Positions 3,012 to 44,685 are shown, counted from the first letter of the stretch. The stretch is 64,000 bases of DNA from Shigella phage ESh21 (ON528731), one strand, 5' to 3'. The notes: generated from the letters alone by a model not told the origin. Made by a program: numbers and translations.

Positions 3012-3766
3012 TGTTTAATTCCAGAGAATCCGTAGTAAATTGGAATCTTCGTTGTGGTAATACTCCAAAGGTTCTATACAGCCCTGAATATTGGGAATCA
3101 CTGAAGAGTCAATCTCTTTGTATGTTGGAAGAAGCTAAAGAGTTAGTGTCAGCAGTTGAAGCAAAAGACCCTGTTGAAACCCTTGATGCTCAGGCTGATT
3201 TGCAGTATGTTTTAGATGGTTTGGTATTCTTGTCACAGCATGACCACGATGGTGCTATGGAAGCTGTTTGCCAGAATAACAACCTGAAATATACAGATAA
3301 CTATCAAGAAGCTGTACAACGTATGTTTGACATTGAGAAACGTACTGGTGATGAATGCTATCTACGCCCGTCAATGGTTGAAGGTAAAGAGTGGTTTGCA
3401 GTAGTACGTAAATCAGATGGTAAGATTATGAAGCAGTCTAATCTCCCAAAAGTTCAGCTTGCAGAGTTTATCGCAGAGGTTGAATCTAAAGAGTTATTCG
3501 TGGTAGTATCTGACACATGTGTTATCTGTCAGGGCTTACTAGGAAGTCTGAGAAGCCTTGGTGTAGATAACTTCACAGAAATTACTCCAATCAGTTCTAA
3601 AGCTGATAGAGATTTCTGTAGAGATAATGACTTGTGGGTTGCAGATATCGTTTACTACGATGGTGAGAAGTTCCATACGACCTCATACCCGAAGTTGAAC
3701 TATGATGCAAATAACCTGAAGAATTGGTTAAAAGGGGTAGGTTATAATGGATTCACAGAACACTAA
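3011..3766 (+). CDS. MazG-like nucleotide pyrophosphohydrolase domain protein
   Basis: LEEAKELVSAVEAKDPVETLDAQADLQYVLDGLVF resembles the MazG EExxE...D helix pair; ATGA overlap with upstream stop. Confidence 0.45.
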   Translation: MFNSRESVVNWNLRCGNTPKVLYSPEYWESLKSQSLCMLEEAKELVSAVEAKDPVETLDAQADLQYVLDGLVFLSQHDHDGAMEAVCQNNNLKYTDNYQEAVQRMFDIEKRTGDECYLRPSMVEGKEWFAVVRKSDGKIMKQSNLPKVQLAEFIAEVESKELFVVVSDTCVICQGLLGSLRSLGVDNFTEITPISSKADRDFCRDNDLWVADIVYYDGEKFHTTSYPKLNYDANNLKNWLKGVGYNGFTEH

Positions 3767-4447: not shown

Positions 4448-6682
4448 ATGATTAAAACTATTCGCAAATCTAACGGAAACGTTGTAACATTCGAGCCTGA
4501 ACGTTTGAATAAGTGGGCTTCATGGGCTGACAAACGAGGTATTATCTGGTCAGAAGTTACAATGGAAGCTATGAAACGTGTCTATGAAGGTTGCACCACT
4601 AAAGAAATGCACCAAGCTATGATTGACGTTTGTATTGATAAGCAAAGTCAAGAATACTCTGACATGGCTGGACGACTTCTGTTAGGTATTATCTATAAAG
4701 AAGCTTTTGGTGGATTCACTAAAGTTCCAAATCTTTACGTATTTGTTAAGAATATGGAAGAGTCAGGTTTATGGGAGAAGATGGATTACTCACGAGAAGA
4801 GTTAGAATACCTTCAAGGCTTCATCGTTCACTCAAAAGATATCTCATATGGTTATGCAGTACTGAAACAGTTCCGTGACAAGTACGGAATCCGTGACATT
4901 AAAACTGGACAACTCTTTGAGTCACCTCAGTTTATGTTTATGGGAATGGCTATGAAAGCCTTTGAGAGACAGCCTAAGCACCGTCGCTTAGAGGATGTTA
5001 TCAAGCTGTATACTTATCTGTCAGACTTGAAAATTAATGCTCCAACTCCTTACCTGAATGGTTTGAGAGCTACTAAGTCAGGTTATGCTTCATGCTGCTT
5101 GATTAAAGCTAACGATACCGCTGAATCACTTGGTATTGCTACAAAGGTAGCTTATGATATGACTACAAAGCAAGCTGGTATTGGTATGCTTATGGAGACC
5201 AGAACGATTGGTGACGGGATTCGTCAGAATACCATTGAGCATATGGGGAAACTCCCTTATTATAAGCTTGTACGTGCTGCTGTAGAGGCTAATAAACAAA
5301 AGAGTCGAGGTGGTTCAGCGAACAACTTCTACACTGCTCTTGACCCTCAGATTGAAGATTTACTTCGTCTGAAGCACCCTACAACGGTTACTTCAAAGCG
5401 TATTAATGAGATGGATTACTCATTTGGAACAAACGATTACTTCTGGCAATGTGTGCAGTACGATACAGATTGGCTACTGTTCTCTTACAAGGACGCTCCA
5501 AAATTGTATGATATGTTCTATACAGCAAGTGCAGATGAGTTTGCAATGGCTGTTGGACATGCGGTTCACACTGGTGTTAAACATAAACGAGTAAAAGCTC
5601 GTGAGATTGCTAAGTTGTTTATCCAGCAACGTTATGCAACTGGTCGTGTTTATCCGTTCTTTACGAACAACGCAAACACACATACGCCGTTCAAAGAACC
5701 TTTGAAAATGTCTAACCTGTGCATGGAAATTATATTGCCAGTTTATGGATTTGAGAAAGAGACAGACCTTTACAGCTACAATGCTGCTAAAGAAGATGGT
5801 GAAGTAGCTCTTTGCTTCCTAGCTAGTTTGGTTGCAGGGAGAATTTCAGAAGATGAATACGCTGACGTTGCTTATTATGCTCTTGCAATGGTTGACTCCG
5901 TTATTGACCTTATGGATTACCCGTATCCGTCGATGTGTAACCATGTACAGAAACGTCGCTCTGTTGGGATTGGCCTTACAAATGTGGCTCATTACCTTGC
6001 AAAGAACTACGTGAACTACTCTTCAAGGGCTGGTAAAACGAAGCTACATGAACTTGCAGAGATGCACTCATTCTATCTGCATGAGGCTTCACTGAGACTG
6101 TCTAAAGAGCGTGGTGTACCTGAGTACATGAAGTTTACTAAGTACCCTGATGGTTGGGTTCCAACTAAGACAGCTAACAAGAAGATTGATGAAAAACATG
6201 ATGCAAAACTAAGATATGATTGGGATGACTTAGCACAACGTATCAAAGAAAATGGTGGAATCCGAAACTCTGTATTAGAAGCTTACATGCCTAACGAGAG
6301 TTCTTCACTAGCAACTAATACGACAAATGGCTTGTACCCAATCCGTGACTTTATTTTAACTAAAAAGTCTGCAACTGGTAACGTACTGTTTATCGTACCA
6401 GACTACGAAGAGTTGAAGTATGTCTATGAAATTGCTTGGGATATTGACACATTTGATATGATTGATTGCTATGCAATTGTTCAAAAATTCACTGGTCAAG
6501 CTATCTCTTCAGATTTCTATGTTGACTACTCGAAGTCTAAGAAGGTATCATTAGAGCAAGCTCTGAAGTACATGATTTATGCTAACTCAGTTGGTATGAA
6601 AACCATGTATTACCTTAACAGTCGTATTGGTGTTGGTAAGTCAGCACTACAAGATACTTACTGTGAAGGTTGTGGTGTTTAG
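4448..6682 (+). CDS. nrdA: ribonucleotide reductase class Ia large subunit
   Basis: 744 aa; N-terminal ATP-cone-like region; C-terminal CEGCGV redox tail; adjacent nrdB. Confidence 0.9.
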   Translation: MIKTIRKSNGNVVTFEPERLNKWASWADKRGIIWSEVTMEAMKRVYEGCTTKEMHQAMIDVCIDKQSQEYSDMAGRLLLGIIYKEAFGGFTKVPNLYVFVKNMEESGLWEKMDYSREELEYLQGFIVHSKDISYGYAVLKQFRDKYGIRDIKTGQLFESPQFMFMGMAMKAFERQPKHRRLEDVIKLYTYLSDLKINAPTPYLNGLRATKSGYASCCLIKANDTAESLGIATKVAYDMTTKQAGIGMLMETRTIGDGIRQNTIEHMGKLPYYKLVRAAVEANKQKSRGGSANNFYTALDPQIEDLLRLKHPTTVTSKRINEMDYSFGTNDYFWQCVQYDTDWLLFSYKDAPKLYDMFYTASADEFAMAVGHAVHTGVKHKRVKAREIAKLFIQQRYATGRVYPFFTNNANTHTPFKEPLKMSNLCMEIILPVYGFEKETDLYSYNAAKEDGEVALCFLASLVAGRISEDEYADVAYYALAMVDSVIDLMDYPYPSMCNHVQKRRSVGIGLTNVAHYLAKNYVNYSSRAGKTKLHELAEMHSFYLHEASLRLSKERGVPEYMKFTKYPDGWVPTKTANKKIDEKHDAKLRYDWDDLAQRIKENGGIRNSVLEAYMPNESSSLATNTTNGLYPIRDFILTKKSATGNVLFIVPDYEELKYVYEIAWDIDTFDMIDCYAIVQKFTGQAISSDFYVDYSKSKKVSLEQALKYMIYANSVGMKTMYYLNSRIGVGKSALQDTYCEGCGV

Positions 6683-41724: not shown

Positions 41725-41847
41725 AATAAAACACTTAGAAGATAACTTAAAAGACTCTTCTAAAAAGGCTATTTAAACAGATATCTTTCTGGATATCTAT
41801 CTCTTATCTTAAAAGCCTTTTAAGAAGTCTTCATAGTAGGAGGTTGA

Positions 41848-42219
41848 ATGACCAAAAGAACAAACAAAGGCCAGTTTAAAAAAGGTCAATCTGGTAACCC
41901 TTCTGGGAGACCAAAAGGTTCACGTAACAAGAGTTCTCTTGTAAAAGCTCAACTAACCATTGACAACTCAGCAGAGTTTGCTGCAAAGTTATTTGAAGCA
42001 ATTGTTACAAGGGATGCTACAAAGCTGGCAGAGTTTGGACTCAAGCCTGATGAAGTCAATTTGAAGTCGATGATGGAAGCTGGTAAAACTATCATGACTC
42101 ACTCAGCAGGTGAGATGAAAGCAATTGCAGCAGATGTTAAAGGTGGTGGTGAAAAGGGTGGAGAGAAACCACAAGACAACAAACCAACGTTCTCTGCTGT
42201 AGCAACTCTGAAGAAATAA
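41848..42219 (+). CDS. hypothetical protein with N-terminal GNPSGRPKG motif
   Basis: 123 aa; KGQFKKGQSGNPSGRPKGSRNK basic Gly/Pro-rich N-terminus. Confidence 0.5.
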   Translation: MTKRTNKGQFKKGQSGNPSGRPKGSRNKSSLVKAQLTIDNSAEFAAKLFEAIVTRDATKLAEFGLKPDEVNLKSMMEAGKTIMTHSAGEMKAIAADVKGGGEKGGEKPQDNKPTFSAVATLKK

Positions 42220-42297
42220 TTTAAAAAGGTGTTGACAGACTTTATTGGTTACTTTAGAGTCTGTCTCATCAACAACAATGAGAGAAGAGAGAGTATT

Positions 42298-43713
42298 ATG
42301 AGCGAATTATTTAACCACGCAAAATTACATGCTGGTTTGACTGAAAACGGTGCTGTTAACCATCTGACCTCAATGTCTGCCTTGGTAGACTTTTATAAGG
42401 CTGCTGGTTCAAGCCGTAACTACCCAGAGACTTTACCAAATCTGTTTTACAAAGCTCTGCGAGAAGATATCGATGTAGCGGTTCGAATCTTACTCCATAT
42501 GCGAGATGCGCGAGAAGGTATGGGAGAACGTAAAGCATTCAGAACTGTCCTCTCAGAATCTATCAGAACCAACATACTTGATGAGTTCCAAGTTCTGCGT
42601 ATCATGGCTAAGATTTCTGAACTAGGTCGTTATGATGACTTCAAAATCTTCGTAGGTACTCGTTACGAGACTGATGCTTTCAAGCACATTGAGCAAGGAT
42701 TGTTAGACCCAAATACTTCAGCGTTAGCTGCTAAGTGGTTGCCAAGGGTTAAGAAGCGTCACATGAATTTTGTAAAGCGTTTCTGCAAGTTTGCAAATCT
42801 AAGCCAGAAAGAGTATCGTCTGATGTTATCAGCACTGTCAGATACCGTAGAGCAAAAGATTTCTGCAAATGAGTTTGGTGAGATTGATTACAGCAAGCTT
42901 CCTTCACTGGCTGCTGCACGTTATCAGAAATTGTTCACACGAAAAGGTGGAGAACGTTATGCAGAGTATGTAAAAGCTCTGACAGAGGGTACTACCAAGA
43001 TTAACGCTGGTGCTGTTTACCCATATGATATCACCAAAGCTGTGAAGTACGGTCGTAGTGAAGTGGCTAATGAGCAATGGAAAGCACTGCCAAACTGGAT
43101 GAAGGATGGTGAAAACATTCTTTGCATGACTGACGTATCAGGCTCTATGACGTGTGAACGTCACGGTTCTGTAGATGCTCTTGATATTGGTGTATCTTTG
43201 GCGTTATACGTCGCAGAACGCAATACAGGGTGTTTTAAAGATGAGTTAATGGTTTACTCCACAAATCCATTCTTTATCACTCTAAGTGGCTCTCTGAAGA
43301 ATCGTATGGCTCAGGTCATGTCACATGTAGAGTATGGTTCAACAAACCTCCAAGCTGCTTTTGACAGGATTCTTGAAATTGGTAAAAGAAATAACTTGAC
43401 TCAAGATGCAATGCCACGTAAGCTTATCATCTTCTCTGACATGCAGTTTAACTCTGTTGATGGTCAGCGTGGTAATACTAACTTCGAAGCAATTCGTCGT
43501 AAGTATGAAGAATCAGGTTATGAAATGCCTCAGTTGGTATTCTGGTATCTGGCAAATCGTGGTGGTAACTGCGAAGTGTCTATTAAGGATAACGGAGTAG
43601 CAATGGTTTCAGGGTTCTCTCCAGCTACATTAAAGGCTCTACTTGGTGGTGAGAAGTTTGACCCAATCAGCGTAATGCTCAAAGCAGTAATGTCTGAACG
43701 TTACGATTGGTAA
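42298..43713 (+). CDS. vWA-domain protein (MIDAS DxSxS), Ro60/TROVE-like architecture possible
   Basis: C-terminal half has ILCMTDVSGSMT (DxSGS MIDAS) and IFSDMQFN; N-terminal half predicted helical; start 42298 after GAGAGAAGAGAGAG preferred over 42229. Confidence 0.55.
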   Translation: MSELFNHAKLHAGLTENGAVNHLTSMSALVDFYKAAGSSRNYPETLPNLFYKALREDIDVAVRILLHMRDAREGMGERKAFRTVLSESIRTNILDEFQVLRIMAKISELGRYDDFKIFVGTRYETDAFKHIEQGLLDPNTSALAAKWLPRVKKRHMNFVKRFCKFANLSQKEYRLMLSALSDTVEQKISANEFGEIDYSKLPSLAAARYQKLFTRKGGERYAEYVKALTEGTTKINAGAVYPYDITKAVKYGRSEVANEQWKALPNWMKDGENILCMTDVSGSMTCERHGSVDALDIGVSLALYVAERNTGCFKDELMVYSTNPFFITLSGSLKNRMAQVMSHVEYGSTNLQAAFDRILEIGKRNNLTQDAMPRKLIIFSDMQFNSVDGQRGNTNFEAIRRKYEESGYEMPQLVFWYLANRGGNCEVSIKDNGVAMVSGFSPATLKALLGGEKFDPISVMLKAVMSERYDW

Positions 43714-43731
43714 AAAGTTTTAAAAAGGGTA

Positions 43732-43760
43732 TTGACAAGGTTGTTGATACCCTGTAAGAT
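43732..43760 (+). promoter_or_regulatory. sigma70-type promoter
   Basis: TTGACA - 17 nt - TAAGAT. Confidence 0.5.
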
Positions 43761-43822
43761 GTTCTACATCGAAACGAAAAAGAGTTTTTCTAAAAGATTT
43801 TCAAAATGTTTTAAAAAACCTC

Positions 43823-43852
43823 TTGACAAACACTAAAAAATAATGTTATAGT
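43823..43852 (+). promoter_or_regulatory. sigma70-type promoter for tRNA array
   Basis: TTGACA - 18 nt - TATAGT, 27 nt upstream of first tRNA. Confidence 0.55.
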
Positions 43853-43878
43853 GGTTTCATAGAGTTTAAAAAGATTAT

Positions 43879-43955
43879 CTCTGTTTAGCTCAGCTTGGTA
43901 GAGCGTTCCGTTTGGGGCGGTAAGGCCAGAGGTTCAAGTCCTCTAACAGAGACCA
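43879..43955 (+). tRNA. tRNA-Pro (anticodon TGG)
   Basis: manual cloverleaf: acceptor CTCTGTT/AACAGAG, T-loop TTCAAGT, CCA encoded. Confidence 0.7.
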
Positions 43956-43962
43956 AATTAAT

Positions 43963-44037
43963 GTCGTAGAAGGCAAATGGTTAGCCACCTGACCTTCAAT
44001 CAGTTGCTCGCGGGTTCGAATCCCGTCTACGACTCCA
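43963..44037 (+). tRNA. tRNA, anticodon probably TTC (Glu), tentative
   Basis: acceptor GTCGTAG/CTACGAC, T-arm GCGGG-TTCGAAT-CCCGT, CCA encoded; anticodon loop CCTTCAA has C at position 33. Confidence 0.55.
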
Positions 44038-44122
44038 AATTTGACAGAAGACCAAATACAGCAAACAACTTTTACTTTTCGCGCATAGAAAACATAAAAA
44101 GCTTGGTCTGGTCATTAAGAAT
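44038..44122 (+). repeat. structured inter-tRNA spacer element (family CAGAAGACC...GGTCTGG), copy 1
   Basis: begins right after CCA; conserved ends shared with copies at 44200, 44604, 44685. Confidence 0.6.
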
Positions 44123-44199
44123 CGCGGGTATAGAGAAAGGGCGTCTCACATGTCTCATTAGCATGGCAACGGTTGGTTCGACTCCAACACCCGCCTCCA
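44123..44199 (+). tRNA. tRNA with anticodon CAT (Met or Ile2 or fMet)
   Basis: anticodon arm CATGT-CTCATTA-GCATG, T-loop TTCGACT, CCA encoded; C1-C72 mismatch. Confidence 0.6.
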
Positions 44200-44282
44200 A
44201 ATTTACAGAAGACCGTTTACAGCAATTTAAAAACAATTTTATCGGAAAATTAAAATGAATACGGTCTGGTAATGTTAAACAT
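44200..44282 (+). repeat. structured inter-tRNA spacer element, copy 2
   Basis: AAATTTACAGAAGACCGTTTACAGCAATTTAAA...ACGGTCTGGTAAT. Confidence 0.6.
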
Positions 44283-44359
44283 GGTTAGGAAGCACATAAG
44301 GCATGTGCGGTCGGCTGTTAACCGAATGGCACAGGGTTCGAATCCCTGACTAACCGCCA
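44283..44359 (+). tRNA. tRNA-Asn (anticodon GTT)
   Basis: D-arm GCAC/GTGC, anticodon loop CTGTTAA, T-arm CAGGG-TTCGAAT-CCCTG, CCA encoded. Confidence 0.7.
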
Positions 44360-44369
44360 AAATTTAAAT

Positions 44370-44457
44370 GCGTCGTTATCCCGTAGATGGAAGCGGTGGC
44401 GACTGTAAATCGCTTGTCATTACGACTCGGTAGGTTCGACTCCTTCACGGCGCACCA
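44370..44457 (+). tRNA. tRNA-Tyr (anticodon GTA), long variable arm
   Basis: 88 nt; anticodon arm GGCGA-CTGTAAA-TCGCT; variable stem GTC/GAC; resembles E. coli tRNA-Tyr layout. Confidence 0.6.
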
Positions 44458-44463
44458 AATAAA

Positions 44464-44541
44464 GGTTATGTAGTTTAATCTGGTTAAAATACCTCCCTGT
44501 CACGGAGGAAGATGTGGGTTCGAGTCCCATCGTAACCGCCA
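44464..44541 (+). tRNA. tRNA-Asp (anticodon GTC)
   Basis: anticodon arm CCTCC-CTGTCAC-GGAGG, T-loop TTCGAGT, CCA encoded. Confidence 0.7.
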
Positions 44542-44603
44542 ATTTTGAGAAGGGCTTTTTTAGCCCCTCCCTTAAAGAGTTCTTGTGAGTATTCTTTAAA
44601 GGA

Positions 44604-44685
44604 GCAGAAGACCAAATTCAGCAAGCAACAAAAATATTTCAAGCCAATTAATTTGAAAAATTTAAAACTTGGTCTGGTTCCAACA
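44604..44685 (+). repeat. structured inter-tRNA spacer element, copy 3
   Basis: GCAGAAGACCAAATTCAGCAAGC...CTTGGTCTGGTTCC. Confidence 0.6.

Follow-up and report, generated by a model that had tools for sequence, protein, structure and literature searches.

Does a phage protein that joins a helical half to a von Willebrand factor A (vWA) domain, and whose gene stands directly ahead of a tRNA array, work as a Ro60-like protein with RNAs from that array? The question is raised by Shigella phage ESh21 (ON528731), a Felix-O1-type myovirus (Ounavirinae), of which one strand of 64,000 nucleotides (nt), here called the window, was analysed. Ribonucleoprotein particles of Ro60 and Y RNA occur in animals and in some 5% of bacteria; what they do is still under debate. 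An original prediction, made from the sequence alone, had proposed that the protein encoded at positions 42298–43713 and structured RNAs encoded beside it form such a particle. We find that the protein has a predicted Ro60-type fold, that an RNA element in the array (44691–44818) is laid out like a Y RNA, and that a family of such RNAs accompanies DUF2828 genes, to which this gene belongs, in many unrelated phages and on the gene strand. We consider it likely that a divergent Ro60-type protein forms ribonucleoprotein particles with small RNAs encoded nearby. Unless stated otherwise, positions are those of the window and features lie on the plus strand, that of the gene.

Predicted Ro60 fold of the protein

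The open reading frame (ORF) at 42298–43713 was confirmed. Its longest frame opens with a GTG at 42229 (494 amino acids, aa), but homologs begin instead at the ATG at 42298 and have the same length as the resulting 471-aa protein. Pfam matches are DUF2828 (E 1e-25) and DUF7788 (E 1e-43), and PHROG 850, 'RNA-binding protein', matches with E 8e-172; homologs already carry the labels "RNA-binding protein" in RefSeq and "Ro-like RNA binding protein" among actinobacteriophage annotators. The N-terminal helical, TROVE-like part comprises residues ~1–270 (42298–43107), and the vWA domain, delimited by the DUF7788 match and by hhalign to the Ro60 vWA domain, residues 275–455 (43120–43662). Its MIDAS (metal-ion-dependent adhesion site), consisting of D279-x-S281-x-S283 (DVSGS, 43132–43146), T349 (43342–43344) and D381 (43438–43440), is invariant among 50 homologs, down to 41% identity. 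The helical part has invariant basic and acidic motifs of its own (R69, D70, R72, G74, G76, E77 and R78; G110, R111 and D114; K146, W147 and P149).

An AlphaFold model built from 50 homologs (predicted local distance difference test, pLDDT, 90.3; predicted template modelling score, pTM, 0.89) is helical to about residue 263 and alpha/beta thereafter. When this model was compared with the PDB using Foldseek, the top nine entries were all of the Ro60 family (E 1e-8 to 2e-6), among them Thermus phage phiLo Ro60, Xenopus Ro60, Ro60 complexes and D. radiodurans Rsr, with alignments of ~500–570 columns and TM-scores of 0.40–0.61 (0.53–0.61 in 6/9). The match spans 393 residues and takes in the helical part together with the vWA domain; matches to vWA domains only reached a TM-score of ~0.23. 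The predicted model thus consists of alpha-helical repeats capped by a vWA domain and superposes on solved Ro60 structures. A C-terminal vWA domain with an intact MIDAS, a helical N-terminal half and an architecture common to Ro60 had all been proposed from the sequence, and each is borne out by the DUF7788 match, the invariant residues, the model and the Foldseek list.

Sequence comparison recovers part of this kinship. With hhalign and a Ro60 profile built around gp220 of phage Bxz1, residues 235–440 align to Ro60 313–532 (probability 90%, E 1.5e-6), a stretch that comprises the last TROVE helix and the vWA domain. The family profile aligned with a single Ro60 sequence only at the MIDAS loop, a search of PDB chains by protein sequence and profile found nothing significant (best TROVE entries E 1.7), and NCBIfam gave no match. 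Because the kinship is only partly recoverable by sequence, we describe the protein, on the strength of its model, as a divergent Ro60-type protein and not as a demonstrated member of the TROVE family.

The positional ortholog in Bas63 (Escherichia phage JohannRWettstein, Felixounavirus), bas63_0130, also has 471 aa and lies directly upstream of tRNA-Pro, in a region with 83.6% nucleotide identity to the window. In the 2024 PhageMaP preprint its product, gp130, was reported to be structurally similar to Ro60 and to be required against the Ppl defence system, a defect that was complemented (bioRxiv 10.1101/2024.10.10.617714).

A permuted tRNA-like element in the array

The tRNA array begins 166 nt 3′ of the gene and contains 25 tRNAs called by ARAGORN, plus a tRNA-Glu at 43963–44034 identified with Rfam. 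A 423-nt gap between tRNA-Asp and tRNA-Lys holds no tRNA; within it, beginning 978 nt past the stop codon on the same strand, lies the long element at 44691–44818. It opens with the outer helix (UUAC/GUAA); an internal loop (AGA/G), which is asymmetric, and a closing stem (AGACCGU/AUGGUCU) come next, followed by an unpaired UACAGCAA (44704–44711) and then by a V-like hairpin. After these stand a canonical T arm (44746–44762, GAAGG-UUCGAUU-CCUUC), a loop-closed "acceptor" stem (44763–44778, ACACG-UUACGG-CGUGU) followed by UG, and a D arm (44781–44795, GUGU-AAUGGUA-GCAC). This is the permuted tRNA-like order that defines YrlA, and positions 25–83 of Rfam YrlA (RF02553) align to 44740–44797 (21.1 bits; a search of 171 nt gave E 0.019). 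A covariance model of the family, described below, scores the element at 86.9 bits, the only match at E ≤ 1e-4 in the 64-kb window, the element being itself a seed sequence.

The equivalents of U8, G10, A14, G18 and G19 are invariant across 34 diverse elements, so that the tRNA elbow is probably formed. With neither an anticodon arm nor a free 3′ end, the element cannot act as a tRNA; ARAGORN did not call it, and the tRNA model scored 19 bits (gathering score 29) in a different register. No ORF is conserved across the 423-nt gap, and an 84-aa ORF at 44545–44799 was rejected as a coding explanation, its frame being broken in Sf17 and Bas63. In Bas63, two small reverse-strand coding sequences annotated 'hypothetical protein', bas63_0137 and bas63_0138 (3429–3703 of locus L011), cover the short and Y-like elements; both coding sequences are probably spurious.

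Short elements with the same stem and motif

From 331 nt past the stop codon, three shorter elements have the stem and motif of the long element and lack its tRNA-like core. S1 (44044–44115; covariance model R1, 28.3 bits, E 2.8e-4; repeat family D11/D12) has the closing stem AGACCAA/UUGGUCU, UACAGCAA and an A/U-rich loop; S2 (44205–44273; R1, 34.2 bits, E 1.9e-5) combines AGACCGU/ACGGUCU with UACAGCAA; and S3 (44604–44681; R1, 21.6 bits, E 6e-3) combines AGACCAA/UUGGUCU with UUCAGCAA. The stem therefore varies among copies between AGACCAA/UUGGUCU and AGACCGU/ACGGUCU. Rfam 15 holds no family for the short elements and gave no match at gathering thresholds. A test for a closing stem of at least 6 bp did not discriminate, being passed by 49% of shuffles, and was dropped as evidence. 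The 5′ halves of S2 and the long element are identical over 34 nt (44198–44231 and 44684–44717, 100%), which suggests, as far as sequence can tell, a recent duplication or the insertion of a tRNA-like core into a short element.

In other phages the constant module of stem plus motif carries either A/U-rich loops or a conserved block, GAACCUUUCCGGAGGGGAAAGCAAAAACUCGCC, a variety of inserts that fits the idea of a modular Y RNA. The block occurs as an insert in a CAGCAA stem module with no tRNA-like core in six loci (L163, L167, L174, L183 at 4716–4815, L194 and L213) and has no Rfam match.

The array directly downstream of the gene, the structured spacers repeated within it and the tRNA-like fragment that had been noticed there are all confirmed: the spacers are four copies of CAGAAGACC...WCAGCAA...GGUCUGG, and two tRNA-like fragments are present, at 44746–44795 and 45669–45755.

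Linkage to DUF2828 genes and covariation

A DUF2828 gene is found in 709 of 50,697 phage records (~1.4%), and metagenomes hold thousands of homologs. Several lines of evidence connect the RNA family with these genes.

First, a descriptor for a T arm, closed acceptor stem and D arm was run on loci around the gene. It matched in a 53%-identity Ounavirinae relative (L010), with other T and acceptor stem sequences, in Klebsiella phage FBKp34, between the DUF2828 gene and the first tRNA, and in mycobacteriophage Whirlwind, directly 3′ of the gene; two further phages, a T4-like phage of Vibrio and Aeromonas phage APT65, gave related forms in a scan for CAGCAA followed by a T loop. On Rfam YrlA the FBKp34 and Whirlwind elements score 39.6 bits (E 3e-5) and 38.3 bits (E 7e-5), and the canonical YrlA beside Bxz1 Ro60 scores 32.5 bits. 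At gathering thresholds Rfam reported nothing but tRNAs in five related loci, and it holds no family matching the CAGCAA-motif RNA. Directly 3′ of the DUF2828 gene of L010 (9501–9563, +) the 'skipping-rope' RNA of Rfam also gives a sub-threshold match (29.1 bits against a gathering score of 36.7).

Second, we scanned IMG/VR from the motif, for TACAGCAA, 20–45 nt and GGTTCRAWTCC, which returned at least 120 stretches. Among the matches listed, a DUF2828 homolog is present within the stored sequence of 54/120 stretches, in 54/54 on the motif strand, and the motif often starts 95–135 nt ahead of the start codon. A permuted-motif control (TAACGACA) gave a DUF2828 gene in 0/120 stretches, again among the matches listed.

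Third, in a forward test, 80 loci were fetched by protein similarity alone and joined by 11 other loci. A covariance model seeded with 34 diverse elements had 54 matches at E ≤ 0.01 over 1.02 Mb, all of them on the gene strand (0 on the opposite strand). Three further loci all contained elements, scoring up to 102 bits.

Fourth, the motif itself is enriched. In 63 non-Felix loci, we counted 59 sense and 5 antisense copies of WCAGCAA no further than 300 nt from the gene, against 4.5 expected (~13-fold enrichment); when the distance is extended to 600 nt, 49/63 loci have one sense copy or more. tRNAs lie within 5 kb of the gene in 24/63 loci (132 tRNAs, all on the gene strand), so that the tRNA linkage is looser than the motif linkage.

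Fifth, the helices covary. RNAalifold recovered four helices from the seed alignment, with compensatory changes in 20/23 pairs. In 28 model matches, whose sources were all fetched by protein similarity except the window, 97.3% of cells are paired and 21/23 pairs show compensatory changes; the covariation score of 0.734 compares with 0.07–0.12 for slid controls and was reached by 0/500 shuffles. The 7-bp closing stem alone has compensatory changes in 7/7 pairs, with 97.9% of cells paired.

Weighing the evidence

A number of findings weigh against reading the locus as a Ro60 system. For the protein, Pfam TROVE (PF05731) gave no match at E ≤ 1 (the positive control, Bxz1 gp220, gave E 9e-50), so that of the two domains suggested for the N-terminal half, DUF2828 was found and TROVE was not. 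The vWA_Ro60 model of Pfam likewise gave no match, the vWA domain carrying the DUF7788 label, and the N-terminal repeats stayed unaligned in the comparison with the Ro60 profile. For the RNA, the long element has no GNCGAAN0-1G, an invariant CAGCAA standing in that position; its 21.1 bits on Rfam YrlA fall below the gathering score of 69; and its folding energy is no better than that of shuffles (z −0.96). Because the YrlA of Bxz1 itself scores 32.5 bits, the gathering score is too strict for phage members, and because the folding energy of the single sequence is not significant, the structural argument rests on comparative evidence. Here the covariance model matched in only 34/80 protein-selected loci, its seeds were chosen by rules that require helices, and a model-fitted alignment leans towards the model structure. 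The 28 matches analysed for covariation escape the choice of seeds, though not this leaning, and neither tendency affects the bias in strand, the enrichment of the motif or the permuted control. As for function, the preprint proposes DNA degradation for Ppl (bioRxiv 10.1101/2024.10.10.617714). Finally, in several lineages (L159, L161, L167, L174, L194 and L205) CAGCAA hairpins of 33–36 nt end right before the Shine–Dalgarno sequence of the DUF2828 gene.

These leader hairpins bear on the alternative that survives best, although we think it unlikely as the main explanation: that CAGCAA hairpins are chiefly cis-acting sites on the protein's own mRNA or on the tRNA precursor, serving autoregulation or the guidance or protection of processing, with the tRNA-like element as one such site. 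A hairpin abutting the ribosome-binding site suggests autoregulation through the same site, and those in the leaders may act in cis, possibly as autoregulatory operators, rather than as free RNA; within the window, moreover, the elements alternate with tRNAs in one apparent transcription unit. However, the window elements lie 330–1100 nt downstream of the gene, outside the leader, and tandem elements occur both upstream and downstream of the gene. A plain operator would have no need of a complete tRNA-elbow mimic with the nucleotides for its tertiary interactions, and the canonical Ro60 phage Bxz1 has the same arrangement, a long RNA and a short one. Action in cis is in any case compatible with protein binding and may hold alongside particle formation.

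It is very improbable, in our judgement, that the protein is instead a vWA/MIDAS adaptor, either a co-chaperone of the MoxR type or a direct inhibitor of Ppl, that resembles Ro60 in structure only and has no role with RNA. MIDAS sites usually bind protein ligands, a role for the MIDAS in Ro60 is not established, and the Ppl counter-defence phenotype alone needs no RNA. Yet no gene for an AAA+ MoxR ATPase was present in the window neighbourhood or in 16 other inspected neighbourhoods, the Ro60 match extends over the helical part (393 residues), and an adaptor would leave the strand-specific linkage to a structured RNA family unexplained.

Least probable of all, and largely refuted by covariation and linkage, is that the tRNA-like element and spacers are functionless decayed tandem tRNAs or insertions beside a protein with no dedicated RNA: the upstream half does align weakly to a tRNA anticodon arm and T arm (19 bits), tandem tRNAs do yield weak false matches to Y-RNA models, the 5′ half of S2 is exactly duplicated in the long element and the array has a pseudo-tRNA at 45669–45755, but decay would not place the same architecture by DUF2828 genes in unrelated Enterobacteria, Klebsiella, Vibrio and Mycobacterium phages and metagenomic lineages, preserve compensatory changes in all four helices with acceptor strands that pair through a loop, enrich CAGCAA even where tRNAs are absent (motif in 49/63 loci, tRNA in 24/63) or leave the permuted-motif control at 0/120 among the matches listed.

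Proposed mechanism

On the reading that we prefer, in which a divergent Ro60-type protein binds RNAs encoded nearby, the RNAs would be transcribed together with the tRNA array and then cut out. Each would carry a protein-binding module in which a closing helix with a bulge leads into single-stranded (U)ACAGCAA, which would occupy the position of GNCGAA in canonical Y RNAs. The tRNA-elbow mimic of 44691–44818 might then link the protein to a partner that recognises tRNA, or serve as a decoy for such a factor, as in Rsr/YrlA. As its output, the particle would protect the infection from host defence, probably by controlling the processing, decay or repair of RNA or tRNA. We propose this output because of the Ppl phenotype of Bas63 gp130 and because DUF2828 genes of other phages lie among genes for tRNA and RNA repair: in Listeria LP-048 these are RtcB, RNA ligase, an HD phosphohydrolase, YqeY and a hibernation factor; CBB has an RNA ligase and a CCA-adding enzyme, and a 302-kb phage has Thg1 and YqeY.

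A broader proposal, which we put forward only tentatively, is that DUF2828-type Ro60 proteins and CAGCAA RNAs constitute a widespread counter-defence ribonucleoprotein with a modular RNA, and that the RNAs are a second class of Y RNA that co-evolved with its own Ro60 lineage. The constant stem would then bear interchangeable heads (the tRNA-elbow mimic, A/U-rich loops and the third, conserved insert) that could decoy or tether different factors of the host, for instance nucleases that target tRNA, exoribonucleases or the Ppl system.

Genomic setting and other features of the array

Region 41800–45800 has 96.7% identity to Shigella phage ESh22 and 84–87% to Mooglevirus and Felixounavirus genomes. 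Even diverged members of the Ounavirinae keep the order DUF5681 gene, Ro60-like gene, tRNA array, DUF7217 gene and terminase. In four unrelated phages (loci L004, L005, L012 and L216), genes for nicotinamide phosphoribosyltransferase and PRPP synthetase (NAD salvage) lie a few kilobases from the DUF2828 gene.

Promoter candidates were found by consensus: a sigma-70-like site upstream of the Ro60-like gene (TTGACA-17-TAGAGT, 42232–42260, 10/12 matches), a site with TG ahead of the array (TTGACA-18-TATAGT, 43823–43852, 11/12), a weaker one at 43732–43760 and a near-consensus sigma-70 site inside the array (TTGACA-17-TATAGT, 45215–45243, 11/12). About 200 nt of non-tRNA sequence separate the last of these from tRNA-Arg and give weak, sub-threshold Rfam matches to permuted tmRNA (30 bits, gathering score 47). 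Since the number of promoter-like sites in the region does not exceed shuffled expectation, the promoter-driven transcripts that had been suggested for the array remain candidates only.

The first tRNA block (Pro, Glu, Met, Asn, Tyr and Asp; 43879–44541) has S1 and S2 interleaved. Its tRNA at 43963–44034 scores 53.7 bits on the Rfam tRNA model and is missed by ARAGORN; in relatives it carries the annotation tRNA-Glu-TTC. The Y-like element is followed directly, on its 3′ side, by a very stable hairpin-closed RNA of 149 nt (44814–44962; 21-bp closing stem; minimum free energy −50.4 kcal/mol, z −5.7), which ends 2 nt before tRNA-Lys; the equivalent in Bas63 has a different sequence and an equivalent closing stem. 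Long hairpins at 45408–45448 and 46020–46100 end a few nucleotides before tRNA-Arg and tRNA-Leu and have in common a 3′ tail, AAAGAU(N)UUAAU, that is also present before tRNA-Lys (44950–44964); these two may serve the tRNA precursor as leader hairpins or in its processing. Other gaps of the array (45200–45448, 45526–45763 and 45854–46100) show moderate folding only (z −0.6 to −3.0).

At 45669–45755, a degenerate tRNA-like sequence combines a 7-bp acceptor stem, a 5-bp 'anticodon' stem with a 9-nt loop (CCUCCAAAA) and a T arm; called by neither ARAGORN nor Rfam, it is by its sequence either a pseudo-tRNA or an unusual tRNA-like RNA. A YrlA match at 47547–47670 (21.6 bits), the only one when the region was scanned with Rfam at E ≤ 1, was rejected as a tandem-tRNA artefact over tRNA-His and tRNA-Phe, the kind of false match described by Chen et al. 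(2014). The array also contains three ORFs that are all annotated in relatives, at 46771–46983 (70 aa, overlapping tRNA-Arg(ACG)), 47029–47256 (75 aa) and 47700–48434 (244 aa, a DUF7217 protein, E 3e-82).

Significance and comparison with known systems

The protein would represent a much more divergent Ro60 lineage with structured RNA partners of its own and a different conserved motif, and the contrast of GNCGAA with CAGCAA offers a natural comparison for RNA recognition by Ro60 rings. The elements would give the position of the Y RNA so far "missing" for a protein genetically shown to defeat Ppl. They make a candidate Rfam family and would correct the annotation of hundreds of phage genomes, where the element is unannotated or lies under spurious small ORFs. 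If the tRNA mimic is indeed a decoy or tether, phage tRNA arrays, RNA repair genes and anti-defence would be joined in one mechanism.

The outline of this system has precedents. YrlA RNAs beside TROVE proteins were predicted in 22 phages, with the caveat that tandem tRNAs give false Y-RNA-model matches (Chen et al. 2014, PMC4201824); in Thermus phage phiLo, a Ro60 and its Y-like RNAs (Yrl1/Yrl2) have been characterised (PMC12135203; PDB 9kop, 9l5y); and the preprint on Bas63 considered that Y RNAs might be hidden among the tRNA genes, naming no RNA (bioRxiv 10.1101/2024.10.10.617714). In view of these reports, the original prediction of a Ro60-like protein with adjoining RNAs, which fold, RNA structure, covariation and gene–RNA linkage support, is correct but not new. 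A literature search on DUF2828, DUF7788 and PHROG 850 found nothing relevant, and the RNA elements, the conserved motif and the family-wide linkage appear to be undescribed so far. Relative to the Bas63 preprint, the element reported here is an RNA other than the annotated tRNAs, in the gap between tRNA-Asp and tRNA-Lys; the family-wide motif and the short forms are absent from that work.

The element resembles phage tRNA genes and pseudogenes in its canonical T and D arm sequences and its position within the array, and differs from a tRNA in the circularly permuted order of T arm, acceptor stem and D arm, in the loop that closes the acceptor and in having no anticodon arm. The phiLo protein, labelled TROVE-domain in its PDB entries, has 16–18% identity to the window protein, and its Yrl RNAs lie upstream of the gene, with their CGAA placed in a stem-bulge-stem.

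Compared with bacterial Rsr and its YrlA and YrlB RNAs (Salmonella, Mycobacterium; PMC4201824), the window protein belongs to DUF2828/DUF7788 instead of TROVE/vWA_Ro60 and has no rtcBA operon; its RNAs are interleaved with a phage tRNA array, and WCAGCAA replaces GNCGAAN0-1G, the proposed Rsr contact. The likenesses are a vWA ring-fold protein, here predicted, with an RNA nearby on the same strand, and an RNA in which a closing stem is followed right after its 5′ strand by a single-stranded motif and then by V, T, closed acceptor and D modules. The combination of one long tRNA-like RNA with shorter hairpin RNAs is found both with Rsr and with the Ro60 of cluster C mycobacteriophages (Bxz1 gp220). 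In Bxz1, the RNA upstream of Ro60 begins with a closing stem, at once followed by a GNCGAA-type motif and then by a tRNA-like core, and a second RNA is a short hairpin with GGCCGAAGG, the same split into long and short forms as in the DUF2828 system.

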